From Reclinomonas americana ATCC 50394 (Eukaryota): a stretch of 35,825 nt of DNA. Positions 717 to 35,825 of this stretch are shown here, one piece after another (positions within the stretch are counted from its first letter, which is position 1; every line of letters begins with the position of its first letter). A model generated the notes under the pieces. The model saw only the letters and a list, made by a program, of their open reading frames with translations. It had not been told where the DNA came from and did no database searches. A program made the translations under genes and the position numbers. The stretch is taken from contig PS015650.1 in the NCBI GenBank assembly GCA_048213135.1, positions 1-35,825 on the forward strand, read 5' to 3'.

Positions 717-3700
717 TTACATGGCAGTGGAGAAGACGAGTTTCTGCACGTCGGCCAGCCGCCGCTTCTCGGCCTCAGAGAGCGTCGACTGCATGCGACC
801 ACCGGGACCCATCATGTTGGAGTAGACACGCGCCGTGGGCGACATGATGATCGAGCGTCGACGCTGTCCGTGAAAGGCGGAGGGCGTGGCGTGCCCCGAA
901 GACAGGTCACCCATCGACGTCTGTTGTGCGCGAGGCGAGTATCGCTGCACCACCGCCCCACCACCGCCGATGCCAAAGTGCGCCGGGGACGACACTGCGC
1001 CGGAGACGCCACTGGCGTCGCCACCACCACCGGCCAGACGGCGCAACTCGTCGTCGGCCGGCATCATTGACGACGACCACATATCCATGTTTTTGGCGCG
1101 TTGTACGAAAGACGAGGACGACGACGATGCGCGACTCTTGGGTCGCGGAATCGGCGAGGCATCCTCCATGCCGTCGAGCGTCAGCGGCAGAGGGCGGCCA
1201 CCGCCCAGCGAGAAGAGTCTGTGTCGCCGTGTGGCTGGATCGAGCGGCGATGCGGGCGACAAGGCGGTCTCGTAGTGTCGCGGTGATACGGGAGCCGAGA
1301 AGGCCACCATACCACTGCCACGACGCGCGCGGGTCGACTGACTTGGTGCGGCGAGTGTCGTGGACGACGACTGCAGCGGGTCGACCGGCTGCAGCTCGCC
1401 GTCGAACGACGACAGCGGGTCGAGTGTCACATCGTCGGCGTCGCCCACGTAGCCCTCCTCCTCGATGTCGTCGCCGCCGAACTCGGACTGCCCCGAATCC
1501 CCACCACCGTTCCTGCCGAGCACCACGAATCCGGGAAACAGCGGCTCCAAGTCCACCGAGGAACCGCGCCGGTGTGAGGAGCGCACGAGTCGATGTATTA
1601 CTGGTGGACCGACATCGTGAGCACGCGGGAGGCGTCGGCGCAGAACTGTCTTGTCGCGCATGCCCGGCTGGCGCAAGCCCAGGTGTCTTGCCAGCGCTGT
1701 TTCGGGGAGAGTGCAAGTGAGCGACGAGGAGGAGCGACTATTCAAACAACCATCACCGCCCTCACCTTCATGTTCCGTTCGCAGCTTCCGAGTGGTGGCG
1801 TCCGTGTCGGCTGGCGTGTCTCGCACCACGGTATCCGCTTGCGGCATGGCCACGGCCACGTCGACACTGCCTTGCGTCTTGTCCAGCGGATTTGGCGGCG
1901 CGCTGGACTGCGACTTGTTTAGTGGATTTGGCGGCATGCTGTCGGCCGACGCTGCAACATGCGAGTGGCGTCCGCGACGCTTGCCAGGCGCCGTCAGTTT
2001 GGGCGCACGCGGTGAATCGTCAGATGAGTCTGTTGAATCGGAGCGACGAGTGGACGACATGGCTCGATTTCTGGGGCGGGGTAGGGGGGTGAGTGGCAAC
2101 GACTCGGAGGCGGTCGTCGTCATTGGCACGCAACTTGATGCGATCGAACCACGTCGAGGACGACGGCGACGCATCCTGCCGCTTGTGCAACCAGTCGAGC
2201 ACGGCTTGCGACTGCGGCTGCGTCTGTTGCGGTGCGTCGGCAAAGGAAAAGTAGATGCGGTACAAGCCACGCGCTTGCAGCTCCTCGGCCGCCGCCGCCG
2301 GAACCTCCACGTTGTGCACGTGCAAGAAGTTGACACGGACGGTTTTGATGCCCTGCATGCCAACCACAATATGAGACACGGTGGGGACGAAAGAATTAAC
2401 TGGTGCCACTGCTGACCTTGAACCGCTTGCGATGTACGCTCCACATACGCGCCACCATGGTGTCGGCGGCAATCTCCGCCTGGTCAATGTCGGTGGGGAC
2501 GGGTTCTGGCTCGTTCACCATGTCGGCCGGGTCTGGCACCGACACTTCGCGATACCAGCGACGGATCTTGGATTTCATCTCGTCGTTGATGTATGTGCCA
2601 GCAACATTGGCCGCCGCCTCCTCGTGATCCGCTACGCCACCAGGCCGCGTGTGTGAGAGAGAGTTAGGGGGTGAAACAAAGGCACGGGCTTCTGCAACTC
2701 ACCAGCGGTGACTTCGGTGACGGCGCCCGTGTTGCGCATGCCGAGGGGCTGTGTGGTGGCCACGGGGTTGTCGGGTCGTGACTTGCGGCGCTGCCGGATC
2801 ATGAGCTTCTCACGCAGTCCACCCTGCTCCTCAGCGGCCACCACCTGAGCTCGTTCGTCCACTTGCGACAAAAAGTACCTGCACAGACACACGGTCAGTC
2901 GGCTCATTATTGTGCACGTAGACAACTCGCTGCGACGCACCTCTCGGAAAACATGAGCGACTGCATGGGAAACGTCTTGTGGAAGCGAGCCAACATGGAG
3001 AACTTGTCGGCGGCGCGCTGTGAACGCAGTCGCATGCTCGCCCTGCACATCAGTCAGAGGCAAGACAACTCACACGGAATGACAGCATTTCTCACACAGA
3101 CCGGACGTTGTCGGCGGCCTCGCTGGATCGTGAGGCGGCCGTGGGCGGCGGAGTGGCAGTCGGGAAAGACATGTCCGCCAGAGACATATCCCCGCCAAAG
3201 GTGCTGTCGTGACCGCTGCGAGCCGACACATCGGCACCACCGCGACTCCTCGGTCGACTGCGACTGGCACCCCGGCTGGGCGGTCGATCCGACGACTTGC
3301 CGCTGCCCATTCGCTTCTGCGGGGCCACAGGCGGCAACTGGCCCGGCGTCGACGGCCCACTTTCCAGCATCATGGTCGACATGTTCACCGATGGGAGCGG
3401 AGCTGTGGTGTCCAGCATCGTCGTACCCACGAATCGAGGTTCCGATCGACTGTTTCCGGTGATGAACAGGATGTGCGACGAGAAGCACACACACTGGTTG
3501 ACTGGACGCACCTGGCAGCTGACATGATGGGCGACTGCACCTGCTGTGTGGGTGCAGGCGATGAGCCCTGCGGTGAATTGGCGTGTTTCTTGGTCGGGCT
3601 CTCCAAGAACACCGCCATCAGCCACTCCAGTTGTTCACTGGCTCCCAGCGAAGTCGGCAAGCTCTCTGGCAAATCCGGTTGCGACGTGGTGGTGGCAAAC

Positions 3701-6218
3701 AGCTCCGTCAGTGATTCGTCAATCAGCTGTGAGCAGGCAAGATAAACAAGGTGAGCGACACCAACACTGATAGCGGCGCGAATGGCCATGCACTTACCGG
3801 CAGCTCTCGCGACGGCCCGGCCGACGATGTACCACTCGCCGAATGCGACGAACGGCTCACGAGCGCTGGTCGTGTGGTCGAGTGCGCAGTCGGGGATCGC
3901 GACGCGCTGCAAGGGCAGGGCGGGGGTGAGCGATGCGCGGAGGATAAGCAGACGAGGAGCACGAAAGTACCTCTCTTGTGCAATGGAAAATTGAGTCTGC
4001 ATGCAGAGAAGCGCAGGAATAGGGATGAGCATGGGGGAAATAGCACAGGTTGCACGCCGCAGCGACTTACCGCAGGTGCTCGAATGTACCAGTCGACGAG
4101 CATCTTGGCCTGACGCGGCAGCATCAGCGGATTCTGCATGGAGAATGCAATCTGTGTTGCGATAGACAGTGAGCGGAAATGGTTCATCGGAACCAGACAC
4201 TGCGAAACGCCTGACCTCGGGGCAAAAGACACGAATCGGTAGCGTGCCGATAATGGCCACGTCGTGCATGATCTTTTGCATGTAGGTGCGTTGCTTCCAC
4301 TCGAATTCGGAACCAGTGGCAAACGCAGACTTTTGGTTGGCAGTGTACGTCTGCCAAACGCGAATGCAGGTGAATTACCGTGTCCACACCCTGTCTCTTT
4401 CAAACAACGCGATGCACACCTGCAACGCTTGGTACGCCTCCACCACGTACACGGTGGCTGTACGCAGAGCGGTGACCAGCCGACGGACTTCGGTGCGCTT
4501 GTCGTTGATGTCCATGAGCAACTCGCTGTGCAATCAATCCAGCAGTCAGCAGTCAGCGACTGTTGAAAAAACACCGTGAGCTCGTGAGGCGCAACTCTTG
4601 GGTCAGGAACTTGACCGACTCGGCGATTTGCTGTCAACATCAACGCGTGAGACGAAGAGGAACGTGGCGCAGGCGCAAAGGCTACGTGCGGAACGCAACG
4701 ACGATGGAAGCAAAGAACGACTCGCGATGATTGATGCACTGCGACACCTTCGAGAGGAGGTGGCGCGTGTTGAGGCAGCGATCCAACTGTGTTTCCTTCT
4801 GGGTCAGCTGTCGAGTGGGAAAATCACTGCAAACAAGCCACACAGAGGTGTACCTCCTCCGCCACCGCTCGGCAGTGCTCCATCGACGGGCGCACACTCG
4901 TGTAGTGCTCCTTGGTGAAGGCGTGAAAGTACGAGTCGCGGATGCCGATCTCCGACCACAGACGACGAAGCATTTGCCAGGCATAAGCAAATGGGTCATC
5001 GCGAATGTCGGAGTGAGTGCGTGCGAGTGCGTCGGTCCGCTCACGAGTCTGCTGCGGACCGAGCAAGTGACATGACTCGATCAGCATCGGTGTGCCGAGG
5101 TCGGGGAGCGCTCGCACAGTGCGCTGTGCGGAGAAGAGTCAGCATGGCAGCGGCAGTGGGGAGCACATGCGCAGCAACGTACGTGAATGATTTGTGACAC
5201 TTCGTACTCTGCGCAGCAACACCAACCAATCATGTGTGAGTCGCAGGGCAACTTGGGGCACCGAAGCGATCGGTCACGCAACTGGCAATCTCGACACCGT
5301 CGTTGAGCAGCGTGACAGGGATGTGTGCATAGTCGCCGAACCGCGCCGCGTCCTTCAGCAGCTGCGACATGACATTGGGCTCCAGTGCATTGCTCTGCAC
5401 ACCACGCAGCCGGGCGCCACCTCCAACGGCACCGAGGCGACCAGATGGAGTCGCACTGGGCAGTGTTGCACCGCGACCACCACCAGCAGCAGCACCACCA
5501 GTCGCCTATACATCCAAGTCGACATGAGACTCCCGCACAGCTATCATCATCATCATCCTCGCCAGCACACGCAACGTTAGCATCCGCAAACAGGCGTCGA
5601 CGAGTCGGCTTCTCCAACTGTGGCAAAACGACGCCCGCACTGGGCGAACCACCTATCACACGCTCATCTTTAGCCACCAATCGACTGCAGCAAAGAAGAA
5701 CGATCCTCTCGCGCGCTCTCTCTCTCATACCTGCAGTCGGCGATCCAGCACCCTCACCACCTGCGCCACCACCCTCCGCCGATCCACCACCCGCCCCACC
5801 ACTCCCCGGTGCATCGCCTGCCACCCCGCTCCCACCTGCACCCGCCGCACCACCAGGCGTGCCCACCATTCCTGGCGAACCCATGGCCGACGGCAACGAC
5901 GAGGTCGTGGTCGATCGCAACTTTTGCTTCTTCTCCACTCGCCGTCGCCCATCGGGCGTCAGACCCATCACATTGCGCAACTGAGAAGTGGGTGAGCACA
6001 CAGGCCACGCACGAGAGGCAAACACACAGACCTCATCCACTGATCTTGCGGCATGGAGCTTCCTCAGAAAGCTGTTCTTCTCGATCCTGCGACGATTGAT
6101 TGTGTGCGTGAGTGACTCATCATCAGTTGTCTTGTGTGTGTGCGTGTGAGCCTGCGATGCGCAACAATAGCTTCCGATGTTCCTCCTCAAAGGCCTTGGC
6201 CGTCTGATTGGCGGTCAT
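717..6218 (-). CDS. Large multi-exon (~21 introns) protein of unknown function: helical N-terminal/central block, long Ser/Pro/Gly-rich disordered C-terminus
   Basis: Exons join in frame across GT-AG introns from a probable start MTANQTAKAFEEEHRKLLIEKNSF (ATG 6218). The path runs through ...EVRRLVTALRTATVYVVEAYQALQ|TYTANQKSAFATGSEFEWKQRTYMQKIMHDV... to ...RRLADVQKLVFSTAM-TAA (717). In-frame stops fall only in predicted introns. The start codon is inferred. Confidence 0.75.
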
Positions 6219-6332
6219 GCAACGTTCCAAACTGTCGATGGACGGCGTTGACAAGCGCGTACACACGTGTCACCACCGCCCATCATCATCATCACGTATC
6301 TCAAACTTCAGACAGAGGGAGAGAGAGAGAGA
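6219..6332. promoter_or_regulatory. Putative bidirectional promoter / shared 5' region
   Basis: Only 114 nt separate the divergent predicted start codons. No specific core motif was identified. Confidence 0.45.
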
Positions 6333-9259
6333 ATGAGTGGGCGATCGTCGCCCTCAGAGCCCGCGCTCTCTGTGAAACGAGTTGCGTGTCTGAGTGTGTA
6401 AGCCCTTGTGTGCGCGAACATGCATTCACTCGGTTTTGTGCTCTCTATCTCTCAGGCGGCTCTTCGCGCCACTGCCACCAACAAGCAGGTGTTGGGCCTG
6501 CGCACGCGTGAGCAGAGCAAGACGGCGTTTGATGAGATGCACCGCCTGCTCTGTGGTGTGTGTGTGTGTCTCTCATTGTGAATGCCCGTATTCTTCCTTC
6601 TCATCAGCAAACAGAGAGCGCGGAATCCCGTGTGACTCCCGATCCACTGCGTGTGCGTGATCTGGTGCGCCTGAAGCCCATGGACTTTTCGCAACAAGCA
6701 GGTTGCGCGTGTGTGTGTGTGCGCGCACGCTCTCCTTCTCTCTTGCCTGCTCTTGTGTGTTCAGTTCGCTCTTGGCGCACACACAGAGAACGGGCAGCAC
6801 GTTTCTCCGCTGGTGGCGCGACTGCGTGCACAGATGGCCGCCATGCAGCAGCGCAAGCAGGAAGAGGTAGACGAGAGGCAGAGGCAGCTGGCGGCGTACA
6901 TTCGCACGTCGCCTGCCTCCTCTTCGTCGTCGTCGTCGTCGGCGCCATCTCTATTGGCCGGACACGCAGTGTACAGGCAGCCGGGCGCAGAGGGTGAGTC
7001 GTTGTCGTCGACACACCGACGCAGCTCCATGCCTGCGCTGTCGATGCCGAGTGTCGGTGTGGCGGTGAAAGACGGGCGCAAGAGTCGTCGGCGAGTGTCA
7101 TCGCCGCGGGAGCGACCGGACACGCTGGAGGTGACTTTTTTCCTGATTCAGCGTCTCACCCCCCCAGCTTTCTGACGCGCACACGCGGACACAGGATCGT
7201 GTGCGAAAGCGTATTGAGTTGTGTCTGCGCAACCCGGAGGCCGCCGCGCAGCTCATTGATTATGCGGAGCAACTTGAGCGCAATTCGACAGAGGAGATAA
7301 GGATGCGGCAAGACGCCTCGCGCACTCGCTTGCAGGAGCACAAGGTCTGTGCATCTGTATATGTACACTTTGTTTTCGTTGGTCTGACTTGCCACGCACA
7401 CGCACACGCACGCAGCTGTGGCTCCAAAACGTGCAGCGTCTGCTCCACCTGGAGGTGACCAGTCCGAAATCGCACCGGTCGCCTCGGTCACGCTCTCCGT
7501 CCCCGTCACCGCCGCCAGAGCTGCTCGCCTCCCCAAAGAGCATGCTTGAGGTCGTGGAGCCGGCGGTGCGTTACGAGAGGATTCGGCGACCGATGGTGCG
7601 CTCGCCGATTGAACAGCTCCGCATGGTGGCCGAGCGGCAGGAGCTGTTGCGCAGGGAGTTTGAGGAGCAGCAGGAGCGCACTCGGCAAGACGTGGAGCGT
7701 AAAGCACAGCAGGCAGAGGAAATTCGCAAGCGCTTGGAGCGGGAGGAGGTCTGCACATGTGTGTGTCTGCTTGGTCTCGTCGAGTGTGTCGTCCACTCAT
7801 TCGCACGTGCGCACCGCGCCACAGGAACATCGACAACGATGTCGATGGTGGCTGAGTGTGGTTTCCTGCTTTTCGCGCATGTCGTACTGGACTATGGTTC
7901 TGGAGGCCACTCGTATTCGGCGAGCGGAGATTGAGAAGTTTGAGCGTGCCGTGTGCACGCTGCAGCGTCGCGTGTATCCCATGGTGCACCTGCGAGTACG
8001 TGTTCGCCGACGACGAGCTGCCAATGTTATCGCTCGCAAGTTGCGTGTTTTGCTCGTACGTGCTTCTTCCTTTCCAATGTTCATGCCTCTCATCGCCCAT
8101 TTATGGAAAAATAGCTTCTGGCGCTACCGCATGGGCAAGCGCATTCACCGCAAGCGTCGTGCCTGCGCGATTCTGCGATCCATGCTCTCCAAGAGCCGCT
8201 CCATCACTCGCTGCTTCGACTATCTCACCATTTTTCACCGACGAGGTACGTGCGACGGGTGCACACGCACAACGAGGCATCCATCTCATCTCAATTCTCC
8301 TGCCGCCCTTCGCAGTGCGCTTGGCGCAAGATGTCGTGCGACATTTGCTGGAGCGAGTGCGGGCGCGCAAGCGCACGTTCATCCAACAGTGGCAGCGCAA
8401 GGAGGAGGAGCTGCGTCGGTGGGCGCCCGACGAACGCCGTCGCCGCATGAAGCAGCGACGAGAGGCCGAGGCACAGGCGCGAATCGCAGCCAGCGCGGCA
8501 AGGCGCAATCGGCGCAACATGGTCAGTGCACGCATCAGTCTCTCCACCGTTCGTCTCATCGCCTCACTTAGTGCGCGGTGCAGGGCTCCTTCACGTCGAT
8601 GATGTCCATGACACACGCGCAACTGGTGGCCGAGCTGCATGCCGCAGAACCTCTGCCGCCTCCGCTCACTCCCCAGGAGGAGGCCATGAGCGTGCTGGTC
8701 GATGCGTATGCGGACTCGGACTTTGTGTTGGAAGAGTCCATCCGCAACCGCGTCATTGATCTGGCATGGCGCTCCCGCCGACGCCGCTACCGTTTGCAAA
8801 CGCGCGCCTACAAGCGGACGGTTGCCGAATCGGCGTGGTCCTCTGTGCGCACCAAGGTGCTCAGCCGGGCGGCGCAATTCGCCAGTGTCGTTGCGTGGTG
8901 GTGGAGGAGGAGGAGGGAGGGAGGAAGATGCTCGAGTGTTTTGTTTTCACGTGTGCTGACGATCGGTGTCAGACAATCGGCGTCAAGCTCGGTCGAAAGA
9001 ATATCATGCTGGCAGAGTTGCCAAAGCGGCCACGATTGCAGGTATCCATGCTCTGTGCTGCAGTCGACTTTCCTTCTGTTTGCTGCCTCACTCACTATGA
9101 CAACCACCCCAGCTGCTGGCCACGGAGAGCGAGCTGATTATTTACATGGCGCAGGCGGTGTTGGAGCAGCAGACGGGAAAGCCGTGCACTGACATGTTCA
9201 TGGAGCCGCAACCGGCGGCACACTCACCGACACACTCGATGTCAGCCGCCGCCAAGTAG
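6333..9259 (+). CDS. Multi-exon (11 introns) basic coiled-coil protein with degenerate IQ-like motifs; function unknown
   Basis: Spliced reading: MSGRSSPSEPALSVKR|AALRATATNKQ...QELLRREFEEQQERTRQDVERKAQQAEEIRKRLEREE|EHRQRCRWWL...VCTLQRRV...AANVIARNFWRYRM...VRLAQDVVRHLL...HSMSAAAK-TAG (9257-9259). The IQ resemblance is by eye only. Confidence 0.75.
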
Positions 9260-9304
9260 TGTAATGCACGTGCAGTTATTGTTGTTGTTGCTGTTATTTC
9301 TTTT

Positions 9305-10982
9305 TCAAGGGTATTTTCTGTATGGTGCCGTGGAGTCCTCCACCGGTAGTAATGCGCGGTCATCACTACTTCGCGATACGACGCTGCTGGTGGTGGTGGA
9401 GGTCGTCGTGTCCGCGGTCATTTCGTCGAGTGGGATCTGTGCCAGTTGAGTGAGGGATTGCGAAGGAGAAGAGAGAGAACGGGTGCGGCTCAAAAAAAAC
9501 CTCTTGTTTTCGCGAGTACTTGGAGAAGCGCGGATCCACATACAGGAAGAGCAGAATGCCCGCGCAAGGGAGGAGATCCATGACCTGCACAAGCGTGTTG
9601 AGTGCGATGGAGCGAAGCGGTGCGGGCGTCGGATCGAGGTCACCCAACCTGCACGACGAAATACACCATGTCCCAGTACTCGAGGAAGTTTTGCAGGTTG
9701 AACGCCAGAAGACCGGCACCGACAGCCACAGGGATGCAGTAGCCCGTGTAGCCGGCGGCGAGGAACATGACCTGCACTCACCACGTTTCATGATTATGAC
9801 GGATGTGACTGGAAGCAAAAAAGCGCCCAGTCACGTGCCTTCAACAACGATCGTCGTGCTCGCTTCCGCAAGGGCCCTCCGCCCTCTTTCATCCTTTGCT
9901 GGTTCGACGAGCGCATCAACACGAACAGCATGCACCACGTGATGACGAGATTGCAGGCGATGGTGAGCTGTCGGATCGCCATCCAGTCAGTCGGTGGAGA
10001 CAAGAACAAGGGGCACGGAAGAAGCCGCAGCGCACCAATACAAAGGCAAAGTAGATCTTAATGTCGGTGGTCTTCATCGTTGTCATTTGCACCATGCAGC
10101 TGACGACTGCGCATGGGAAAGAATGAATGCAAGAACTCGTCGTCGTCGTCGTCGGAAGCAACGCAACTGTCTCCAATCACCACTCCACTCACAAGCAGCA
10201 GCGCGATCACATAGCTCACGACCGAAAACGCAGCAGCGCGGAACAGCAGTCGCAACCTGGAAGGAGAAGAAGAAACCACACATGGCAACCGGAACACGAT
10301 CATCGTCATGATCATCATACAAGCAGGCAGAACAAACAAACGCGACAAACACCGCACCACAGCAGCATGAGCAAGAGGCCGGTGAGGTTGACAGTGACAT
10401 AGATCACCACCTAACGCGCACATTGTCGGTGCTCTTTTCATGACGGAAAAAGGCGAATGACGCAACAAAGGGCACATGCAATGCAATCGAGTTCGTGGTC
10501 GGATCACACAAGTGTTTGTTGAACACGTTGTAGAATGCAGCCACTGTGCACAAAGAGCGTGAGGTTCGTGCACACTCAAGAGGAGGAGACAAGCACACAG
10601 GTCACTCACCAATGAGATGTGTGCACACCAACACACGCAGCACTGTGTACAAGACGCGACTGAACCGATCATCGGCACTGACATGGAACGATCTGCGCTC
10701 GCGTGTGTGAGTGAGGGAGAGGTGCATTGTGAGAGACACGCACACACACACACACACACACACCGAAAGATGCGTATGTCTTGTCTCAGGCGATAGACAG
10801 TGATGCCAACGCCGCCGACGCCAGTGGCGAGGAAGAGGATGTTGAAGATGAGGTACGCCTGTGTGCATCCTGCGACACGTGCGTGCGGGGAGGAGTTACT
10901 CAGCTGAAGCACGAGTGTGTGTGAGTGTGTGAGTGTGTGAGAGAGAGACGGAACCTGCAAATGCCTCTGCGCCGTTGGTCAT
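9305..10982 (-). CDS. Seven-transmembrane protein, probable THH1/TOM1/GPR137-like (DUF1084) family
   Basis: The spliced product (10 introns) has seven hydrophobic segments: YLIFNILFLATGVGGVGITVY; VLYTVLRVLVCTHLIVAAFY; VPFVVIYVTVNLTGLLLMLLW; AFSVVSYVIALLLVSGVVIGDIV; IYFAFVLLTIACNLVITWCMLFVL; VMFLAAGYTGYCIPVAVGAGLLAF; MVYFVVQVMDLLPCAGILLFLY. The Trp at the end of TM3 and the (E/D)LLP in TM7 recall TOM1/GPR137. It has a Ser/Thr-rich tail and a TGA stop. Confidence 0.75.
9772..9838 (-). other. GC-AG intron in the 7TM gene
   Basis: AAG|GCACGT...GTGCAG|GTC is the only nearby junction found that keeps the frame into TM6. Neighbouring GT dinucleotides are in the wrong phase. Confidence 0.7.
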
Positions 10983-11178
10983 GTGGAAGAAAACGAGGAG
11001 AGTCGTCGGAAAGTGGATTTACAAACAACACCAAAGCTACATTGTTTTTCACCGCCCGGAAACGGCAGGAGGACGATGGTCACTCCGCCTCTAAGAAAGA
11101 AACACACACTTAAACACCTAAAACACTCCCCAGCGAGCTGCGGGTATTAGAACTACAACAATTACAACAACAATTCGA

Positions 11179-14855: not shown

Positions 14856-14971
14856 TCGGCGGAAAATCACAAAGGCCCCTCGAAATTGCGCTTCCAATCC
14901 GCCGCAAATTGAAGATATCAAATCGATTTTTTTGATTGTGTTTGGAGAGCTTTTCGTTTCGTCTTTCGATC
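14856..14971. promoter_or_regulatory. Putative bidirectional promoter / shared 5' region
   Basis: A comparatively AT-rich 116-nt interval lies between the divergent ATGs of the PDE and the gap-spanning gene. Confidence 0.45.
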
Positions 14972-19311: not shown

Positions 19312-19475
19312 CAAGAATGAAATTGCATGTCCGGACTTGGGGACTTCTCATCGTCGATATTGAGTGTGTTGAGTGCACGTGAGACCCGCACCCGTCGTGT
19401 TCACTCACACACACAGGCACCGACGCGTGTCCACGCACACAACAGCCGAGAGTGACACAGAGAGACACAGAAAAA

Positions 19476-22142: not shown

Positions 22143-22265
22143 TCTCCGTGGTGCTCAGCAATGTTTAAGGAGTGTATGTGTGCGTTTTGTGAAATCGTAC
22201 TTTGTGCTCTGCAAATAAGGCGTTCATTCACACAATCTCTCCGCCGCTGGCTGCCACGGCAGCGC

Positions 22266-25200: not shown

Positions 25201-25407
25201 CGCCCGTCGAGATGCGCATCAGCGGCACCTCACGTGCGTCAATCACCGACTCGACCTCGCCAACGAGCCACACGTCGCCGACTTGCACTTCCACCACGTC
25301 GGCCACGTCAATGAACGGCTCAATGTTGACCTCACCCAGCGAGTACACCGCTGCCACGGAGTGTCAGTCACCGGCACTGGAGATCACAATGTGCACACAC
25401 ATAGAAA

Positions 25408-25502
<95 letters not shown>

Positions 25503-28500
25503 CGACGACGACGGTACGGCGGTCGGCCGGACGACGACGACGACGNNNNNNNNNNNNNNNNNNNNNNNNNNNNNNNNNNNNNNNNNNNNNNNNNNNNNNN
25601 NNNNNNNNNNNNNNNNNNNNNNNNNNNNNNNNNNNNNNNNNNNNNNNNNNNNNNNNNNNNNNNNNNNNNNNNNNNNNNNNNNNNNNNNNNNNNNNNNNNN
25701 NNNNNNNNNNNNNNNNNNNNNNNNNNNNNNNNNNNNNNNNNNNNNNNNNNNNNNNNNNNNNNNNNNNNNNNNNNNNNNNNNNNNNNNNNNNNNNNNNNNN
25801 NNNNNNNNNNNNNNNNNNNNNNNNNNNNNNNNNNNNNNNNNNNNNNNNNNNNNNNNNNNNNNNNNNNNNNNNNNNNNNNNNNNNNNNNNNNNNNNNNNNN
25901 NNNNNNNNNNNNNNNNNNNNNNNNNNNNNNNNNNNNNNNNNNNNNNNNNNNNNNNNNNNNNNNNNNNNNNNNNNNNNNNNNNNNNNNNNNNNNNNNNNNN
26001 NNNNNNNNNNNNNNNNNNNNNNNNNNNNNNNNNNNNNNNNNNNNNNNNNNNNNNNNNNNNNNNNNNNNNNNNNNNNNNNNNNNNNNNNNNNNNNNNNNNN
26101 NNNNNNNNNNNNNNNNNNNNNNNNNNNNNNNNNNNNNNNNNNNNNNNNNNNNNNNNNNNNNNNNNNNNNNNNNNNNNCGACGAGGTGACGTCCTAAACAA
26201 CGACAACGACTGTTTCAGTGCCTCGCAAACGACAACCTATCGTATTGTTGTGCACATCACGGAACTCGGATGACACCGCGAGTGCCGGCCACGGCAGCCA
26301 TATCGCCATTCCACTGCACACTGGTGGTGGAACCGACGGCTGTGCGCTGGCAACGCTGACGCAACAACGCCACATCAGTCTCGATAAACACGGGCAGACC
26401 AGCCACCAAATCGTCCACGCTGGCCAGCGCTGCACCAGGTGCCACCGCACCAGCAGCGGCGGCAGCAGCAGCTGGAGCGGAACCAGAGCCAGCGGCCGGC
26501 GCATCGGCAGCCACACGGTACAACGTGTCCCACGGCAACACCCAGATGTCGCCACTCTCAAAGCGCACACGAGCATTTTGTGTCGGTGTCACCTCCTGCA
26601 CAACAGCAACAACGACAAACAAAGAATGAGACACTCTGCTTTCCATCACTCTCGCCGCTCTCTTGACGCGATGCGACGCAACGCGAACAACGCCTCGCTT
26701 GCCAGCAATGGCCGCCATGCTTGAGTTCCAGCCGACGTGCGTGCGTGTTCCTGGGGCCGCGCGTGTGCACCGCTGCTGCAGTACCGCCGAGTCGCGTTCC
26801 ACAAATACTTGCAGGTCGACCACCAGGTCACCGACGCCAGCGAGAAGTGCTCCAGGGCGAGCTGCACCAGCCGCACCAGGGGCGGCGGCAGCAGCAGCAG
26901 CGCCAGCAGCAGCGGCGGCCGCCGCCGGCGGGGCCGCCGGGACAACTTCGGCCACTCGGTACAGGGTGTCGAAGGGCTGCAGCATGCATATACATGTGTG
27001 TGTGTGTGAGTCGGNNNNNNNNNNNNNNNNNNNNNNNNNNNNNNNNNNNNNNNNNNNNNNNNNNNNNNNNNNNNNNNNNNNNNNNNNNNNNNNNNNNNNN
27101 NNNNNNNNNNNNNNNNNNNNNNNNNNNNNNNNNNNNNNNNNNNNNNNNNNNNNNNNNNNNNNNNNNNNNNNNNNNNNNNNNNNNNNNNNNNNNNNNNNNN
27201 NNNNNNNNNNNNNNNNNNNNNNNNNNNNNNNNNNNNNNNNNNNNNNNNNNNNNNNNNNNNNNNNNNNNNNNNNNNNNNNNNNNNNNNNNNNNNNNNNNNN
27301 NNNNNNNNNNNNNNNNNNNNNNNNNNNNNNNNNNNNNNNNNNNNNNNNNNNNNNNNNNNNNNNNNNNNNNNNNNNNNNNNNNNNNNNNNNNNNNNNNNNN
27401 NNNNNNNNNNNNNNNNNNNNNNNNNNNNNNNNNNNNNNNNNNNNNNNNNNNNNNNNNNNNNNNNNNNNNNNNNNNNNNNNNNNNNNNNNNNNNNNNNNNN
27501 NNNNNNNNNNNNNNNNNNNNNNNNNNNNNNNNNNNNNNNNNNNNNNNNNNNNNNNNNNNNNNNNNNNNNNNNNNNNNNNNNNNNNNNNNNNNNNNNNNNN
27601 NNNNNNNNNNNNNNNNNNNNNNAATAAATCACCACAAGCCACCGGCATGAGCAGCAAAGACGGGGGAGGGACGAAATAAACGAGCGCACCAATGCCCACG
27701 AATCGCCATTGTCGAAAATGACACGTGCGTTGCGCGATCCAGTTGGCTCCTGCAGTGTGCGCACAAAACCGGTGAGCCCACCTGTCTTGTGCAAGGCACA
27801 ACACAAAGTCACACGTAACTCGAATGACGCCGCGGGCGCCGGCAATCGCCGACATGCGTGAGCTCCAACCGGCACTGGACGACGCACCGGGTGCGGTGCG
27901 GCCGCAGCGCTGCTCGAGCAACGCAGCATCGCGCTCCACAATCACAGCCAAGTTGGCCTGGATGTCGTCGACTCCAGTCAGTGCCGCACCAACAACCGGC
28001 GGTGGTGGCGGCGGCTCCTCAATCAGAGCGTCGAACGGCAGACCCCAAGGACGGGGCTGATTCGGTGCCTGCATGCGGCAGTTGGGGCCAATGACCTCAG
28101 TCACACGGCCACGCTGGCCAGCAAGTGCAGCCATCGCCTCGACCCAGCCCACTGGATCCGAGGCGCCCGGAGCAGGGCGCGTGCACAGTCGACGCAGTTC
28201 ATCGCCGTCGCCAATGACGCGGACATACATACCCACGCGCAGCTGACCGGCGTTCTGCAACGGCATCACCGCCTGTCGAAAAATGAAGGAGAAAAGAGAG
28301 AGAAGTCAGTGCGTGCAAGCGATGAACTCGCATGAGCTTGCTCTAGAGTACCTGGGCATTGAAACGAGTGACCTGTGGCAAAAGGACAGTGATGAGCAAG
28401 CAAACAATGCGAAGGTCACAAGCACGCGGATACAAACCTCGAATGGCGCAGGGGAGACGGCAATCACCGACACCGCAGTGGAGATGACTGTGGACAGGCG

Positions 28501-31500
28501 GAAGTGCGGAACGTCGACGCCAGTCTTGTAGGTCACCGGCTGGAACGTCTGGCGGCAGCGGATCGGACCCGGAGACACCACAGACGGCACCAACCACCGG
28601 TCGACCAGCGTCGGCGGCATCTTCGATTCTGGACCGCTCTCCGGAGCTGCGCACCGTGGGTAAGCAACTACCGGAAAGGGAGACAGTGAGAATATAGAAA
28701 GCCGCCGTACCATGCACCACCAGCTGGCCGCTCGACAAGTCGGCACACAGGAGCCCGGCAGTCGAGTGCCCGATGCGTCCGTCGCGAGTCACCTCCCAGA
28801 TGCACTCCGCCGCCGGCGAGTCGCGCGAGAACGGCGTCAACGTCAGACGCCCGCCAGAACCGACGGAAAGGGCGCGATCGCCAAACATGAGACACACCGC
28901 TGCGCACCACAAACATACGTCGTGAGCCCACCCCAGTGTTACACAATCTGAGTGGCAAACACGAAATGTCCACGCAACGTCCGACAGCAGCACGCCGAAT
29001 CACCGGCGAAACGCCCTGCGACATGGGCTCGTGCAACAGGTCGCCACCGAGGCCATTGTTGAGCAGGCGCACTCGTGCAACCACGGGTGTGCGAGCAGAT
29101 GCAACGCCAATCTCTTCGACCACACCGTGCTGCTTGCGCACAGCAGGTCCGCGCGTGCAACCGCGAGAGTGGTACAGCACCTGGCGGGAAAAAATAAGGC
29201 AACGTCAGCGACACGAGCAAACACACACACACACGTGACAGTCGCGAGAGACAAACCTCTGTGCCGCGACGCACGGCGTGCACAAACGGCTGGTCAAAGG
29301 AGGAGCACGGTCAGTACGGGCACATGCTCGGGGCATCGACACACAGCACAAACCGGTTGCTGCAACAGCCGGATGGAGTGCTGAAGCGAGCTGGCGGCGT
29401 ACAAGAGTTCCGCATACGCTTGTACTTGAACATCTGCAATCGGCGAGCTGCACTCGGCCAGTTTGGCTTCGGCGACGAGTGTCTCCAGCAGACGGCCCAG
29501 CTCCACTGCAACACAAAAAGCACAGCACAAGTGAGTAAACAGAGGCGGTGGGACTGGGAGACGACGAATAAACACTGTTGTGTGCGTACCTTGAGCCTCA
29601 CGCGGGTACGATGTCAGCATATCTGCACAGCAGGAAGATTAGCCACAGTAACAGTCGTGCCGAAAATGAGCACCACGCAGATGCGAACCTCGAGCCACGT
29701 ACAAGGCCACCAGCCGGTCCTGCAGGGACCAGCCGAGAGTCTGCGACGAGAAGGCAGCCGTCACCAGACGCTCCAGCGCATCCGGCGAGAAAATCGCCTC
29801 GGGCGCCACAGCTCGGCGCACGCTGGAAGCGAGCACCGACAACGCAAAGCGCACAGAAGTGTTGGCGAAAGCACCAGCAGCCTCCGGAGCTTCCACTGGC
29901 GACACGGGCAGGTTGTGACGCGTGCCGAGACGCGTCAAGGCCACATTCACCAGCGAGCCGAGGGCGCGCTGGTCGCGCACTGCAGTGAAGAGGCCTTCGA
30001 CCAAGCTCGACACATCTGAGAAAGAGTGTTAGCAGCAAACACAAACGGCAACTTGCGTAGAACCCTTCGTCAAAAAAAACCTTCATCAGACAGCACGGTG
30101 CCTGCTGAGCGCAGCACCGCCTTCCACATTTGATCCCAGCTGTCGATCTGCAAGCTGGCCACCGACAACGGCGCATTGGTCGGCCAGTGCTGGAAGGCGA
30201 CGAGCAGAGCTGCACGGCCCTCGGCCACAGCAACACTCTGGCCCAGCAACGCGAACCACGCAGCCTGTCGTTGTCCCGGCGAGAGCCTCTCCACCAGAGA
30301 GCCGAGTCCGTGACGAGACGACGTCTCGTCGACTGCGCGCAGCACAAATAATCAGTGAGGTCACTGCATGTTCACCATAGCAGACTGCACATCCACGCAC
30401 ATCCAGGCGCCGCGAGCGAGTCGGAGTACAGAGAGCTGGGCGACGCGCTTCCACTGCCGCTCGCAGCCGAGGCAGACGCTCCGCCACTGGCGGCCGCAGG
30501 AGCAGCGGCACCTTCGGCAGGCGGCAGCGCAATGTCGGCCACCATGACCCAGTAATCACGACCGGTTCCTGTGGATGGACATTCAGCACGGACGAACGCA
30601 ACAATGTGAACGAAACAAAAATGAAGCGCGGCACGAAACGGTCCCAGTGAACGCGGAATGGGCGAGTGTTATCACCGACATCCACGCGGTTGACCGAGCC
30701 TGCGAGCATACTTCATAAATGGACCGACAACAAGCACCGCACTGCTCGTCTGCATCGCAAACCTCGGTCGCCGACGGCAAACACGCCTTCCGAATCGCGA
30801 GCGGCCACGACAACAGTGCCATTCTCCACATTGGTCCGCAGGTACGCCAGGTACTGCGTCGTGTCGCCACCAAAGTCCGCCAGTGTGCGCACACTCGCCG
30901 CACTTGATGAACCTGGTGCGACAGAGGTGAACTCAGCAACAGCATAAAAGCATGCGCGCGCGTGTGTGTGCACAATGGAAACGCACCAGCAGCGGGCGCG
31001 CCAGCCGCAGCACCGGCAGCAGCCAGTGTCAGCTGATCAGCCGGGAAGGTGGCACGCTCGCCGCCAGTCAGCTGCGCGCGCGCGTACACACGCAGATAAG
31101 GGCCATGCAACGCGATTTCCACGCCATTTCACGAGGCATAGATGAACATACCTCGACCGTCACCGATGTGGTGGCCGGCATCGCACGCAGTTGGCTGAGG
31201 TACGTGCGGTCCACGCTGACCACACGACCTGTACGGCCAGAATCCTCCGCCCCGATGCACACCTCGGTACCAGGTTGGACACTGTGCACAACATGGTGAG
31301 CAGGGCACGCCAAAGCAGGTAAGCACAGTGACACACGGGAGACGCAACGTGCGGGCCACATACGCGGCATACTGTGCCGCTGAGGCGAATTCTTCGCGCG
31401 GACGCACTGCCGATACGGCGGCACTGGGCGACGGAGCAACGTCACCGCGCGAAGCCCAGAAGGATTCCGGAGCGGTGGCAAATGTTGGCACATCAGCCGG

Positions 31501-34500
31501 GGCGGCGACGCCGCTACCACTTGCACCACTGCCGCCAATCTTGATGCCAGGAACACGCTGCGAGGCAAGCACGGTGAGCGTGGCGATTTGAAAAACTGCT
31601 GCATGTTGCGGAGCACTTTCCCCAATTCACCTTTTTCACGCATGCCTCGCAAAGATCGTAGCTGCACAGCGAGCAATGCCACATGCGCTCTTGCTGGTGA
31701 ATGTTCTTGGTACGGCACACATCGCACTGTGCACTTGCGCCAAGTCCGTAGCGAGCAACATAGCTCGGTGGGCACTGTCGGCAGAGCATCTGCATCCGGT
31801 GACCTTTGTCGCACATGACAGAAGTTCCGGCTGCCTCCGACTGCACACACAAGTAAGCATCTCAATTGCTTTGAGATTAAAAAAGAACACCCCGAACCAG
31901 CAGTGTGGCCAGTNNNNNNNNNNNNNNNNNNNNGGAGACGACATCAGGCTGAGAACATCAGGCGACGCATCGACCAGGCTCGGGCTCGGACTCATGTCGA
32001 CCGACGACCGATCCACGGGGAGAAGCCACGAGAGCGACTTGATAACTTCGGCCTCGGACGGACCAGCTGCATGCAAACACGAACACGCACACAAACGCAT
32101 GTGAGCACAAGAAAGCAACCGAGCATGCCACTCAAGTCACTCACCTCCGCGGCTTGCCACCTTGACTGCAGCAAATCGACGGCGCAGGCTACCCAACACC
32201 TCATCGCCACGCGTCGTGCGAGCGCTTGACATCAAGCGCACGAGCAGGCCGACGACTGGCGGACTCGCATCTGCATGAGAGAAACACACAAAAGATGATG
32301 TGAGTGGCCCTGCAACAAGAGCTGCGATTGTGGGAGCGAGAGGAACACACCTGCACCGTGGTCGTACAGTACGGAGAGCACACGACAACCGGCGGCGGCC
32401 AAGGCGGATCCGCGCAGGTGCAGCGCGAGCGAGTCGACCAAGCGTTGCGGCGTAACCGACGGGCCCGCCACCACACCACACAGGCTAATGGCAGTCGTCA
32501 GCGCAGCCGGCAAGTGCTGCAGCTTCTCGCAGAACGCCGGTGGCGGCGGCTCCACCTACACGAGCCAGCAAAAGGTGGTCAGCTTATGTTCAGCAGTTAT
32601 TTCAAGTAGCAAAACACGTACCGAGTCCACAGCTTGCAGCGAGGAGGTGTCGAACACCACCGACACCGACGGCTCCGACGCGAAGATGCACGTGCAACGG
32701 CCGGGGATGGGAACATCACGAGCAGAAATGACACCCGATCCGCGACCGGCCATCTGAATGGTCGCACCCTCGATTGGCACAGGCCAGTAGCCACCGAGAA
32801 CGGCCATGGCCACCAGCGCCAATCGGAAACTCTGAGTCGGGAGCGACTCGATGCCCTCGACACCACTGGCGGCGAGCGGCTGCAGCGCCTCGTCCAGCAT
32901 GCTGGCCACCTGCGGTCCCCAGTGCGCGTCGCTGGCCAATCGGCGAAGCATAAAGACGTACGACTGCGCCTTGACCGTGTTAACCGAGCGAGCCTCACTG
33001 CTTTCGGCTGTGTGACACCGGAGAAAACGGGTAAGCAAGGGCATGCACTCTTGTCTCACACAGACGAGAGCGCGCACCATCGATAATGGTGGGCAGTCCA
33101 TTTGCTGCCTCGTGCAAGAAGTACGACAGCGGACGCTGCTCGTGAAGGGCGCGTGCGAGATCGAATGCTGCCGGTGGAGGAAAAACAGCAAAAAGGTGAG
33201 TGAGGGGCGGGACAGGCGGCACACTGCTCGGCACCGGCAGCACTCACAAGCAGAGAGCGGAACCATGCGACGGAGGAGATGAACAGCCATGATCACCAGG
33301 CTTTGGTCCTCCAGTGCAGGCGACTCTGTAAACACGGACGTACAGTGTGTGTGTGTGTGTGAGCACTCGACACAGCTGCATCGTCGCCCTCGAGGACACA
33401 CACCCTCGGTAATCTGAATGAGAGCCAACACGCTACCGAGATGGCGTTCGGTGACAGGCACAAAACTGGCTGTCGTGCCAGTGGCGAACTGGACCAAGCG
33501 GTCCGTCGTGTCGACCTCGCGCGCAGCCACGCCGACCGTGATCAACATGTGCGCCGCCTCGAAAAGAGCATCGACGGCAGACGAGCCCTTCACACTCGGC
33601 GGAGCCGTGGCCAACAATCCGAACAGAGAGAACAGCATGTCGGCAATCATGTCCAGCAACTCTGCAGTGATGGACGGTCAGTCAGCTACCGCACGTGCGA
33701 CATTGCAGGGACGGACTCACGGATCGAGTCGGCCGAGTGGTTCTGTCCTGGCGTAATCGACGCGCCAAAGAAGCACGAGAGACTCATCAGGGCCAGCGAG
33801 CTTGCCTGACGCAATTCGTGAACTGCATGCAGTACGCGTTAGGCACACACGCACATAGTGAAGAATGGAAACATCCCCACATTCCACCACTGACGAACCC
33901 GTGGGACCCGGCAGACCAGCCTGCTTGCCACACTCGACCAACGGTGCCACATCTGACACCGACGCACGGAGCATGGAGCGCAGCGCCGAACCAACAGCAT
34001 CTGACAGCACCGTCACGCCACTGTCCGGACGCACGAGACCGCCGAGAGTTTCCACCAGTGCACGCACGTCACTGGGCGCGGAACCGTGCGGACCGAGCAG
34101 CAGGCGCAGACCGAGCACGTTGCGGAAGAGAGCCAGCGAACGCAGTGGAGTTCCTGCATCGGCAGACGAGGCGCTACTGCCGCCGGAGGCTGGCGACAAT
34201 GCCGAAAGAGGAGAGGTAATATCCGGCACCTCAATCAACCCGGCCGCTGCGTAACAATGAGAGAATGGTCGGCAGTAGCGCGAACAAGTGACAAACCTGA
34301 ACCACCGACAGCAGCGCGAATCATGCTGTAGAATGACGAACGGAGATTGTCCGCTACCTCAATCGTGCACGCCTGCGCACAACAACAACAACAAAAGACA
34401 AGTCGGGTCAGTCTCGTCAGCAGGGAGCACCAAGGACGGATGACACAAACGCACATGCAGGCCGTGAGCGTAGTGACGGCTGTTGACCGAATTGGCCACC

Positions 34501-35825
34501 CACTCGAGCACACTGAGTGTCAGCATTTGCTCGTGGCGGTGACTGTCGGCGAACAAGAGAGCCAGCGAGCGGAAAATGTTGCTGCGGAGGGTGGCTTCCG
34601 AGACCTGTCGGTCCACCTCCTGGCGCACAGCGACCGCGTCGTGATCGCTTTGAACGACAAAATTGATAATCTGTGCGCACATGGAGCAAGCATAAGAATT
34701 CAGCCACCAGGAGGGCCTAGGCACGCAGTTCCGAAACATTCTGCGTAATGGTCTCCAACAGCGCGCTGTCCTTTTGTGCCACCGAGGGCGAGAAGGTGCG
34801 AGAGAGCTGCGAAAACCAAGCCGCAGATGCATGTGAGCAGTGTGCCAGCACGTGCGACTACAGACGAGGCAAGAGTGACTAACATCGGTGATCTTGCGCA
34901 TCTGACGGAAGGCGCGCTTCACCACCTTCCAGCCCCACGAGTGACCAGGAGTGGCAGGTGACACGGGCTGTTGCAGCGGATTCCGGAGTGAAACACAAGC
35001 AGAAAACAAATGCAATAAAACCACACACACACTCACCTCAAGTGCCGACTGGATGGCGTTGGCATCGCCGTACTCTTCGGCGTCCACCGACAAAAGATCG
35101 GCGCGACTCGCCAGCGACAGCACCAAGTCCAAGCGTCCCCACATGGGCTTGCACAGCGCGGCAAGAGCCTCCTGTTTGGTCAGAAGCGGGTCCGTGCTCT
35201 GCTTGCTCGCGAGCACTTGTCGGAGCTACAACAAAGCCATCGCACAGATCAGCAACCGGTGGCACTCTGCCCATTCTTCTCCTGCCGACATTCTCAAGTC
35301 CACGAAACATTCTGCGCCATGCGGTACGACTTGAGAAGGTCGGGCGAGCGCTCGCCAACAATGGCGTACGACACCAGTCGCCGGTGCTTCAGCAGCACAG
35401 CAAACATGGCTCGCACAAAGTCATTCGCTGGCACGGGGAAAAAACGAAGCAGTCAGACAACGACGACTCGCCAACAAAGTACAGCCAACAATGGATGGAA
35501 TGCAGTGACGCAACCGACTGGCACAGTCTGCAGCTGGCGCTCGTCCTTGCCGGCACTGCCCGCCAGTGACTGATAGAACGCGCCACCATGACCGGTTCCG
35601 TCAACAACCTCACGCAAGAAGGCATTCTCCTCCATCTCGACATCCTGCCCCGCAGCCACCACTCCGTGTGCAAAGAGCGGAAGCGCCAGCAGGTCAGTGA
35701 ACGGACCGCTGTCCACTGCGCTCATGGAGCGTGAAAGAATCTGCGTGCGTACGGCACAGGTAGCCTCAGTACACGAGCGTGTAAAAGTTGAATGGCAAAC
35801 GCAAATGCTTGCACAAACCGCGACT
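22266..35825 (-). CDS. Giant HERC2/HERC1-like HECT E3 ubiquitin ligase (5' end outside window; spans three gaps)
   Basis: The spliced HECT domain reads WNVKFLGEGGIDGGALYHDSISEMATEL...PLLIPSPN, ELKPNGRNITVTWETLPEYIDL, LETRVCGEPNV, YLWAALRDMTPQERSLFLRFISGRRRLP, catalytic LPEASACFQKLRWPSY, TSAIDLD, and ends ...DEGDATE-TAA (22266). About 50 introns are visible. Confidence 0.93.
22390..24010 (-). other. HECT catalytic domain (approximate bounds)
   Basis: Motifs as listed for the gene. The PLLIPSPN and final IDLD motifs resemble HERC1/HERC2-type HECT domains. Confidence 0.92.
25409..25500. repeat. (CA)n microsatellite, ~46 units, intronic
   Basis: Uninterrupted acacac run next to an assembly gap. 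Confidence 0.97.
25546..26177. other. Assembly gap within E3 gene
   Basis: Run of N. Confidence 1.
26178..28250 (-). repeat. At least four ~75-aa Mind bomb-type SH3 (MIB-REP/SH3_15-like) repeats in the E3 ligase, separated by Ala/Pro linkers
   Basis: The copies are GMYVRVIGDGDELRRLC..GWVEAMAALAGQRGRV; LAVIVERDAALLEQRC..GWSSRMSAIAGARGVI; LQVFVERDSAVLQQRC..GWNSSMAAIAGKRGVV; LPVFIETDVALLRQRC..QWNGDMAAVAGTRGVI. Copies 1-3 end in W-x-LP-F/W-D-x-L; copy 4 runs into the gap. Confidence 0.75.
27015..27622. other. Assembly gap within E3 gene (possibly wholly intronic)
   Basis: Run of N. The flanking exons ...DSWAL| and |PFDTLYRV join in frame to complete a repeat. Confidence 0.95.
30525..31405 (-). 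other. Two tandem CPH (Cul7/PARC/HERC2)-like domains
   Basis: The segments REEFASAAQYAAYVARTVQPGTEV...GRVVSVD and ADFGGDTTQYLAYLRTNVENGTVVVAARDSEGVFAVGDRGSV...RVHWDRTGRDYWVMVADIAL match the CPH pattern (F..Y..YVR.....G..V...GD.G....W...G..YWV). The second is the stronger match. Confidence 0.75.
31630..31820 (-). other. ZZ-type-like zinc finger
   Basis: CDKGH...CDVCRTKNIHQQERMWHCSLCSYDLCEAC. Confidence 0.8.
31914..31933. other. Small assembly gap (20 N)
   Basis: Run of N. Confidence 1.

Follow-up and report, generated by a model that had tools for sequence, protein, structure and literature searches.

The pairing between the 5' end of the U1 small nuclear RNA (snRNA) and the GURAGU-type 5' splice site, or donor, is among the most conserved RNA-RNA recognitions in eukaryotes. 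Here we analyse a 35,825-nucleotide (nt) stretch of DNA from Reclinomonas americana ATCC 50394 (GenBank assembly GCA_048213135.1, contig PS015650.1, positions 1 to 35,825 of the forward strand; called the window below), the gene models of which point to a second class of donors, with the motif |GUUGCGU (the bar marks the cut), lying beside standard donors in the same genes. The standard donors are called class 1 and the others class 2. The closest described counterparts are the mammalian |GUUAAGU-type shifted-register sites, which are a rare minority in man (PMC4856993, where it treats the work of Roca and Krainer). In the sections of PMC4856993 that deal with such sites, non-canonical registers appear as rare exceptions, all the validated ones together making up 1.5% of 201,541 human donors, and the register with a bulge at +2/+3 (Roca et al. 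2012) accounts for 68 predicted and 54 curated sites of the same 201,541 (Tan et al. 2016).

Class 2 is like the shifted-register sites in that the GU is followed by an extra U, that G at +6 and U at +7 are conserved with the cut still at GU, and that G+1 can take the −1 place opposite C9 of U1, with no requirement for a G at −1. It is unlike them in that the mammalian AAGU pairs with the standard U1 while UGCGU pairs poorly with it, and in that the mammalian sites are rare in man while class 2 makes up 26% of the modelled introns here. With the bulged register class 2 shares the one extra nucleotide between GU and the paired +4 to +6 positions; in comparison with that register, A at −2 is kept (14 of 30 class-2 sites versus 23 of 54 class-1 sites) and G at −1 is lost. 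An atypical donor matched by a changed U1 has a precedent in Entamoeba, where the recognition sequence of U1 has changed in this way, and in Mastigamoeba, where a U1 candidate reads ACGUAC, with G opposite the C at +4 (Roy and Bowser, bioRxiv 10.1101/2022.06.08.495308, in the parts of the preprint on these two lineages). Those parts describe one transformed consensus and one U1, whereas here two discrete donor classes occur in the same genes. Introner elements, too, give many introns with an identical start, but the class-2 introns have no similarity beyond the donor.

The U12-type introns, with the 5' motif RTATCCTT and the branch motif TCCTTAAC near the 3' end, likewise have at the 5' end a rigid motif of some 7 bases that is confined to the intron, no exon-side consensus and a place beside standard introns in the same genes. 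Class 2 differs from them by its motif, GTTGCGT and not RTATCCTT, by its branch motif CTSAY, which is that of class 1, and by a frequency far above any share known for minor introns, which in man is 0.36% (figure quoted in PMC4856993). A minor-spliceosome class is thus ruled out by the branch motif, acceptor, length and composition, which are common to both classes. In the open-access literature, the literal motifs GTTGCGT, GUUGCGU, GTTGCG and GUUGCG gave nothing on splicing among the matches listed, and the text of the articles found there on shifted base pairing and on the co-evolution of U1 and donors in protists reported no lineage with an abundant off-register class.

Counted on both strands of the window, GTTGCGT occurs 24 times, compared with 9.73 ± 3.33 times in 100 dinucleotide-preserving shuffles, none of which reaches 24, and all 24 copies are on the strand from which the local gene is read. 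For the control GT[ACG]GCGT there is no enrichment (23 copies versus 23.78 expected, spread over both strands), so that T alone serves as the extra base and a class with A, C or G in its place is ruled out. The variants other than GTTGCGT are not enriched as a group: GTTNMGT occurs 46 times versus 31.0 expected, and subtraction of the 24 GTTGCGT leaves 22 versus about 21, although homology supports at least one of them as a donor, GTTGAGT at 12457. Of the 24 GTTGCGT sites, 21 serve as donors in the final gene model; the copy at 10460-10466, absent from the model, is a plausible donor too, and the copy at 26359-26365 is exonic (A-L-L-R-Q within a repeat domain).

The gene models, which are imperfect, were made with a frame-aware exon/intron parser self-trained on the window. 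When the parser is blind to the donor except for GT, the exons come out roughly correct and the junctions wrong, and GTTGCGT is already the most common intron start (6 of 98); with a donor table learned from the model's own output it rises to 18 of 114. A randomly started mixture of two matrices, fitted to 115 introns, separates gAG|GTGnGTg (weight 0.74) from caa|GTTGCGTgtC (weight 0.26). In the final model the donor model is blind to exon positions and GT...AG is required, with class 1 defined as GTNNG[TC] donors and class 2 as GTTN[AC]G donors, and the 114 introns divide into 54 of class 1, 30 of class 2 and 30 of neither. The class-2 donors are GTTGCGT in 21 introns, GTTGCGC in 2, and GTTGCGG, GTTGAGT, GTTGAGA, GTTACGT, GTTCCGT, GTTTCGT and GTTTCGG in 1 each; two further class-2 introns, with GTTTCGT at 30639 and GTTGCGT at 10466, were added by hand. 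Class 2 thus makes up 26% of all the modelled introns, or 36% when only introns with a recognisable donor are counted, and it occurs on both strands in 6 of 7 gene units (with the four pieces on the minus strand at 22.2-35.8 kb taken as one gene), the gene at 16.0-19.3 kb having none. The initial annotation had counted about 34 such introns among about 115, in 6 of 8 intron-containing genes on both strands, with GTTGCGT as their commonest start and the conserved +5 G moved to +6; that share lies within the range of 26% to 36%, and G stands at +6 in all 30 class-2 donors of the present census.

It might be thought that GTTGCGT is not a splice site and that the introns are mis-drawn by the modelling. 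The models are self-trained, and in five places checked by hand or by profile the model junction was found to be misplaced, the true donor there being of class 1 three times (GTCGGT, GTTCGT and GTGGGT) and of class 2 twice. Such an artefact is nevertheless extremely unlikely in view of the enrichment, the strand concordance of 24 out of 24, the emergence of the motif with no donor model, the control GT[ACG]GCGT, which is unenriched and lies on both strands, and the homology tests given below. It also runs against the reading frames, since 27 of the 30 class-2 introns, if retained, shift the frame or add an in-frame stop; around 22 of the 30, an in-frame GTNNG[TC] donor is lacking for 36 nt in both directions. 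Many of the introns of neither class are probably misplaced junctions; the CTSAY motif is present in 12 of these 30.

The junctions can be tested most directly in the gene for a class I cyclic-nucleotide phosphodiesterase (PDE; 11179-14445, minus strand). From 150 homologues fetched, the 27 spanning the catalytic domain were used for a profile, against which every stop-free GT/GC...AG variant of each intron was scored. The intron at 12519-12585 (minus strand; gct|GTTGCGTC...CGCAG, 67 nt), which has the GTTGCGT donor and splits YHNR|YHAAD, is the best of 11 stop-free variants (392.5 bits versus 386.4 and 385.1), and the intron at 12351-12457 (minus strand; cga|GTTGAGTT...CGCAG, 107 nt), with the variant donor GTTGAGT, is the best of 5 (392.5 versus 382.1). 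In the tblastn alignments the spliced window has NPYHNR-YHAADM opposite NPYHNAM-HACDV of the homologues, and in both an equal distance separates that H from the D-I-E/D-I motif. The initial annotation had taken these two junctions to be pinned by conserved PDE motifs, and both the spacing and the best profile score confirm it. In a variable linker of the catalytic domain, the class-2 intron at 11894-11958 (minus strand; atc|GTTGCGTG...ATTAG, 65 nt) comes second, a variant that starts at GC 3 nt further in scoring 394.4 versus 392.5.

In the HECT ubiquitin ligase gene, the class-2 intron at 23155-23212 (minus strand; gac|GTTGCGTC...TGCAG, 58 nt) was obtained by manual trace and by Pfam HECT positions. 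The exons around it fall on Pfam positions 93-134 and, beyond an intervening exon of 18 residues, 156-199. The junction NITVT|WETLPEY, which had also been regarded as pinned, holds in so far as the flanking Pfam positions are contiguous within one residue, and does not hold as a decisive case, the model giving 19 residues for 20 profile positions. The HECT junctions are judged by Pfam profile positions. With Pfam run on the exons around 31282-31348 and 30569-30639, no match covers the exons flanking 31282-31348, the junction for which the initial annotation had named a CPH motif (YVART-VQPG) as the pin.

The introns at 11894-11958 and 23155-23212 bear on another reading, in which the introns are of the GC-AG type and start three bases later (GTT|GCGT), with GTT as the exon end. 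The three-base change keeps the frame, hence the frames cannot exclude it, the GC-start variant is slightly better at 11894-11958, and an additional residue would make good the one missing position of the HECT profile at 23155-23212. However, at 12519-12585 the GC-start variant is 6 bits lower (386.4 versus 392.5) and breaks the two-residue spacing of the homologues; six modelled donors have no GC (GTTGAGT, GTTGAGA, GTTACGT, GTTCCGT, GTTTCGT and GTTTCGG), nor has the hand-found GTTTCGT at +4/+5, and for these the reading is impossible. In addition, an invariant GTT exon end would occur in all three phases (9, 12 and 9 introns), to which nothing corresponds in the standard class with its AG ends, and the motif following the GC would be weak, with G at +5 in 14 of 30. 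We therefore give this reading only a very small chance.

Apart from the donor, the two classes look alike. All 30 class-2 introns start with GT and end with AG (CAG 25, TAG 4, GAG 1), partly by construction since the gene model required GT...AG, and the acceptor is CAG in 51 of 54 class-1 and 25 of 30 class-2 introns. The median length is 69 nt in class 1 versus 70 nt in class 2, which ranges over 55-107 nt, and the composition of the intron bodies is alike. CT[CG]A[CT] is found in the last 45 nt, with the final 6 nt excluded, in 39 of 54 class-1 and 24 of 30 class-2 introns, CTCAC and CTGAC, rather than CTAAC, being the top 5-mers of the branch region in both classes. The acceptor allows unusually little variation, G or A standing at −4 in 47 of 54 class-1 and 24 of 30 class-2 introns, and the polypyrimidine tract is weak. 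On the evidence of the sequence, then, we take class 2 to be real, ordinary-looking introns of the major, GT-AG spliceosomal type that carry a second discrete motif, |GUUGCGU.

A further possibility is that the class-2 introns are a young family of copied, introner-like elements that start alike by common descent. The heptamer hardly varies, and a few starts agree over 10-11 bases (GTTGCGTCTCC twice, GTTGCGTGTC three times), as would be expected of copies. By contrast, the mean local alignment scores of the intron bodies are 7.62 within class 2 (435 pairs; maximum 14), 7.62 within class 1 (1431 pairs) and 7.64 between the classes (1620 pairs), so that class-2 bodies are no more alike than other intron pairs and class 2 is therefore not a mobile or recently copied family; the lengths also range over 55-107 nt, with no terminal complementarity or repeats. 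We consider this explanation highly improbable. Pairing of the intron ends, as in the non-conventional introns of euglenids, was rejected as well (−3.22 in class 2 versus −3.91 when permuted, 200 of 200 permutations being at least as strong), and the pairing of the donor with its own intron body is likewise no stronger than permuted.

The donors themselves differ in several ways. The motif |GUUGCGU is the genome's strongest standard donor, |GUGCGU, plus one U after GU; in class 2 T stands at +7 in 25 of 30, and positions +8 to +10 (G/C, T/G, C) echo class-1 positions +7 to +9 (G, T/C, C/G). The G at −1 is present in 5 of 30 class-2 versus 41 of 54 class-1 sites (Fisher 1.8e-7). Among the class-1 donors that read GTGCGT it is still present in 7 of 11 (p 0.0066 versus class 2), and therefore a strong intron side does not explain its loss in class 2. 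The variable pair, which in class 1 is GC 12, GA 10, GT 9 and TT 7 times of 54, is GC in 24 of 30 class-2 sites (5e-7) and GA in 2, and +5 in class 2 is C in 28 and A in 2 of 30. Class 2 is thus far more rigid than class 1, consisting essentially of one motif with a few tolerated variants, and the initial claim that each class-2 donor is a standard donor with one extra T is too general as it stands, since the pairs GC and GA are shared so differently between the classes.

To see what a standard U1 would make of these sites, consider the duplex energies predicted with the 11-mer printed in PMC4856993 for its 5' end, by a nearest-neighbour model that ignores pseudouridine and proteins. The energies are −6.72 kcal/mol for class 1, −2.05 kcal/mol for class 2 and −2.77 kcal/mol for exonic GT (n = 1489), and the canonical register is the optimum in 43 of 54 class-1 donors. 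According to the model, a standard U1 would therefore be unable to distinguish class-2 donors from exonic GT. Class 2 would then be short of adequate complementarity to the standard U1, which was the membership feature tested for shifted and bulged registers, with the proviso that the organism's own U1 may differ; the analogy with the mammalian shifted registers drawn in the initial annotation does not transfer directly. Two hypothetical 5' ends, which are given as illustrations and not as findings, may be compared with this: with G-C at positions 5-6 the predicted energies are −9.15 for class 1, −7.57 for class 2 and −5.61 for the controls, and with an added A too they are −7.85, −10.47 and −5.08, respectively.

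It could still be argued that one standard U1 reads both classes, class 2 being read through the known mammalian non-canonical registers, either by a shift of one or with U bulged out at +2/+3, and that the lineage simply puts up with many such sites, its machinery having nothing special about it. According to the relevant sections of PMC4856993, experiments in human cells have established both registers; the shifted duplex (C9 to G+1, A7 to U+3 and C4 to G+6) is the predicted optimum in 6 of 30 class-2 sites; and Thecamonas and Mamiellales retain a standard U1 despite a preference for C at +4 (as stated in part of bioRxiv 10.1101/2022.06.08.495308). If one standard U1 read both classes, however, class-2 donors should pair better than exonic GT, which they do not; opposite the two pseudouridines A at +5 should beat C, the reverse of what is seen; and the bulged register should retain the G at −1, which is lost. 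The abundance is also far from the human one, which in the figures of PMC4856993 is 1.5% of donors for all non-canonical registers and 54-68 of 201,541 for the +2/+3 bulge, compared with 26% here. Reading of both classes by a standard U1 thus appears unlikely to us.

About a quarter to a third of the short introns start with the second motif, which suggests that the organism recognises intron starts in two ways, and in the light of the pairing model some adaptation of the recognition machinery is plausible. The variant U1/U6 snRNAs or modified recognition proteins that the initial annotation took to be implied go no further than such a plausible reading. We propose that in class 2 the recognised block, UGCGU, would stand off from the cleavage site by one nucleotide more than its counterpart in standard introns, the cut itself remaining at GU. 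The intronic G+1 would then occupy the place held in standard sites by the exonic G at −1, which would explain why a G at −1 is not selected. The reader of UGCGU would be an snRNA 5' end carrying G/C in place of the two pseudouridines of the standard U1. It could belong to the sole U1 of the organism or to a variant present as a second U1, and the placing of the cut at GU would then fall to U5, U6 and Prp8. Because in the model a standard U1 cannot tell the sites from exonic GU, and because C is nearly invariant at +5, an adapted U1 seems to us the most likely reader, and we would put the chance of this reading, in which UGCGU is read one position further out, with G+1 in the place of the −1 G, by a G/C-adapted U1 5' end, possibly that of a second U1, a little short of even. 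In the stronger form there would be two parallel systems, the standard U1 serving AG|GUNNGU, and a second U1-like snRNA complementary to GUUGCGU, one nucleotide longer and with G/C replacing the pseudouridines, serving a quarter to a third of the introns; we regard this as possible but rather doubtful. No snRNA gene lies within the window, the whole of which gave no match in Rfam at gathering thresholds.

Alternatively, the class-2 donors might be defined mainly after or without U1, with U6, U5, Prp8 or a protein reading UGCGU and GU, and with U1 pairing minimal or not needed where introns are this short and the branch site is near (intron definition). This would fit the negligible predicted pairing of class 2 with a standard U1, the rigid and wholly intronic motif with no exon consensus at −1, and the shortness of the introns (55-107 nt) with the CTSAY motif nearby. 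Against this, no candidate reader was found, and class 1 in the same genes looks U1-dependent, as seen from its G at −1 (41 of 54) and its canonical register (43 of 54). We think it an improbable explanation, though one to be kept in view.

Several points weigh against the proposed reading of UGCGU by an adapted U1, or against the census on which it stands. When counted from the cut, the exon positions are alike in class 1 and class 2 (C/G at −3 in 40 of 54 versus 21 of 30, and A at −2 in 23 of 54 versus 14 of 30), a likeness not predicted if the entire U1 helix were simply moved by one nucleotide; preferences kept relative to the cut would fit a separate, cut-anchored reader of the exon end. 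A sole U1 with G opposite +4 should favour C there, whereas class 1 has T 22, C 17 and A 14 times of 54 at that position. All that is said here of U1 comes from the nearest-neighbour model, and the junctions come from gene models, frames and protein homology, among which the higher score of the GC-start variant at 11894-11958 and the missing residue at 23155-23212 have to be counted. The sample, finally, is one 35-kb window with about 7 genes, and of its 114 modelled introns 30 belong to neither class.

If the proposal of a displaced recognition is true, the organism would offer a natural experiment in which one rigid off-register motif serves at least a quarter of the introns beside standard donors, and it would open the questions of how the cleavage site is fixed under a displaced recognition helix, how U1 and U6 hand over and whether snRNA variants can split an intron population. 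A second U1-like snRNA, if true, would bring the number of spliceosomal codes for 5' splice sites to three, after those of U1 and U11. In many genes of this organism, gene finders that rely on one donor matrix will place splice junctions wrongly.

The window is draft sequence with about 60% G+C and four runs of N, and short introns are very dense in it. By gene-model score the regions 1-6330, 9251-11150, 11101-15351 and 22151-35825 are assigned to the minus strand and 6251-9300, 16013-19400 and 19351-22200 to the plus strand, the assigned strand far outscoring the opposite one in every region (e.g., 258.4 versus 11.6, 213.9 versus 0.0, 204.4 versus 0.0 and 158.1 versus 23.7). Two genes are recognisable, the PDE gene at about 11.2-14.4 kb, with Pfam PDEase_I on four exons, and that for a very large HECT ligase (22266-35825, minus strand), which is at least 13.5 kb long, reaches the end of the window, crosses four assembly gaps and has HECT on four exons (Pfam) together with weak SH3_15 and Cul7 matches. 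In a Pfam search of 150 raw open reading frames of the window the PDE domain was the sole match. The nearest named homologues of the PDE are in the transcriptomes of Percolomonas sp. and Diplonema japonicum, with 25-33% identity in the catalytic-domain tblastn alignments. A HECT exon matched, in a protein atlas, HECT clusters from mixed phyla, while a metagenome scan with it gave 599 pattern matches and 0 confirmed, two short HECT exon pieces gave 0 matches in the PDB, and word-indexed homologue searches with three exons (32622-33005, 11179-11538 and 22499-22804; longer proteins) gave none that scored. The sequence collections searched yielded no protein from this genome or from a near relation of it, and the assembly thus seems unannotated and phylogenetically isolated.

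In the HECT gene, repeated units of about 110 residues at 26257-28272 show a weak match to the Mind-bomb SH3 repeat, and 30764-30910 shows a weak Cul7/CPH match, both under the Pfam cut-offs. Microsatellites of the types (CA)n, (GA)n and (GT)n abound in introns and beside assembly gaps (25390-25500, 10741-10770, 12375-12395 and others); several modelled donors of the GTGTGT type sit in such runs, and thus their exact junction is ambiguous.

The other class-2 introns, which come from the gene model except where noted, are as follows. On the minus strand of the region 1-6330 they are at 2071-2134 (caa|GTTGCGTG...CCCAG, 64 nt; also in the heptamer list), 4631-4699 (gtc|GTTGCGTT...GACAG, 69 nt), 5209-5282 (cca|GTTGCGTG...CGCAG, 74 nt) and 5506-5575 (aac|GTTGCGTG...TATAG, 70 nt), with a variant at 4526-4595 (aga|GTTGCGCC...CACAG, 70 nt). 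On the plus strand they are at 6381-6455 (cga|GTTGCGTG...CTCAG, 75 nt), 8040-8114 (caa|GTTGCGTG...AATAG, 75 nt) and 8890-8972 (gtc|GTTGCGTG...GTCAG, 83 nt), with variants at 6702-6786 (cag|GTTGCGCG...CACAG, 85 nt), where in-frame GTGTGT alternatives lie 9 and 15 nt downstream, and at 20684-20742 (gag|GTTGAGAA...CGCAG, 59 nt). The last modelled intron of the plus-strand gene in 6251-9300, at 9042-9112, starts with GTATCCAT, close to the U12-type donor RTATCCTT; its branch region has CTCAC about 24 nt from the end, like the ordinary class, and the resemblance to the U12 type may be by chance.

On the minus strand between 9251 and 15351, the class-2 introns are at 10107-10167, in a membrane-protein gene (aca|GTTGCGTT...CGCAG, 61 nt), at 13479-13539 (cat|GTTGCGTC...TGCAG, 61 nt) and at 13896-13967 (tag|GTTGCGTC...GCCAG, 72 nt), together with a weakly supported variant at 10870-10954 (cag|GTTCCGTC...CGCAG, 85 nt). 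The intron at 13121-13190 (gca|GTTGCGTT), obtained from the gene model and by reading, has an uncertain acceptor, the model giving GAGAG at 13136 and an in-frame CCAG at 13121 giving 70 nt. The probable intron at 10411-10466 (ttt|GTTGCGTC...GTTAG), which was missed by the model, was found by three-frame reading, with a tentative acceptor and a tentative frame for the next exon.

In the HECT gene, both manual trace and gene model give the introns at 22306-22377, the last of the gene (ctt|GTTGCGTG...TGCAG, 72 nt), 22416-22498 (cac|GTTGCGTG...TGCAG, 83 nt) and 24030-24097 (gca|GTTGCGTG...CACAG, 68 nt), and a variant at 23668-23734 (aca|GTTGCGGC...CGCAG, 67 nt). The gene model gives those at 26596-26682 (cgc|GTTGCGTC...TGCAG, 87 nt), 28900-28978 (gac|GTTGCGTG...CGCAG, 79 nt), 31282-31348 (cac|GTTGCGTC...CACAG, 67 nt) and 35428-35514 (tcg|GTTGCGTC...GCCAG, 87 nt), and variants at 27750-27819 (cga|GTTACGTG...TGCAG, 70 nt), 34671-34737 (aat|GTTTCGGA...CACAG, 67 nt) and 35226-35308 (aat|GTTTCGTG...TGTAG, 83 nt), all on the minus strand like the rest of the gene. 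The variant at 30569-30639 (acc|GTTTCGTG...CACAG, 71 nt) was found by hand in a three-frame reading, and it holds an unused GTTGCGT at 30596-30602 on the same strand, 37 nt downstream of its own GTTTCGT donor. This copy could be an alternative or a decoy donor; if it is used, the exon would be extended by an open, non-homologous stretch.

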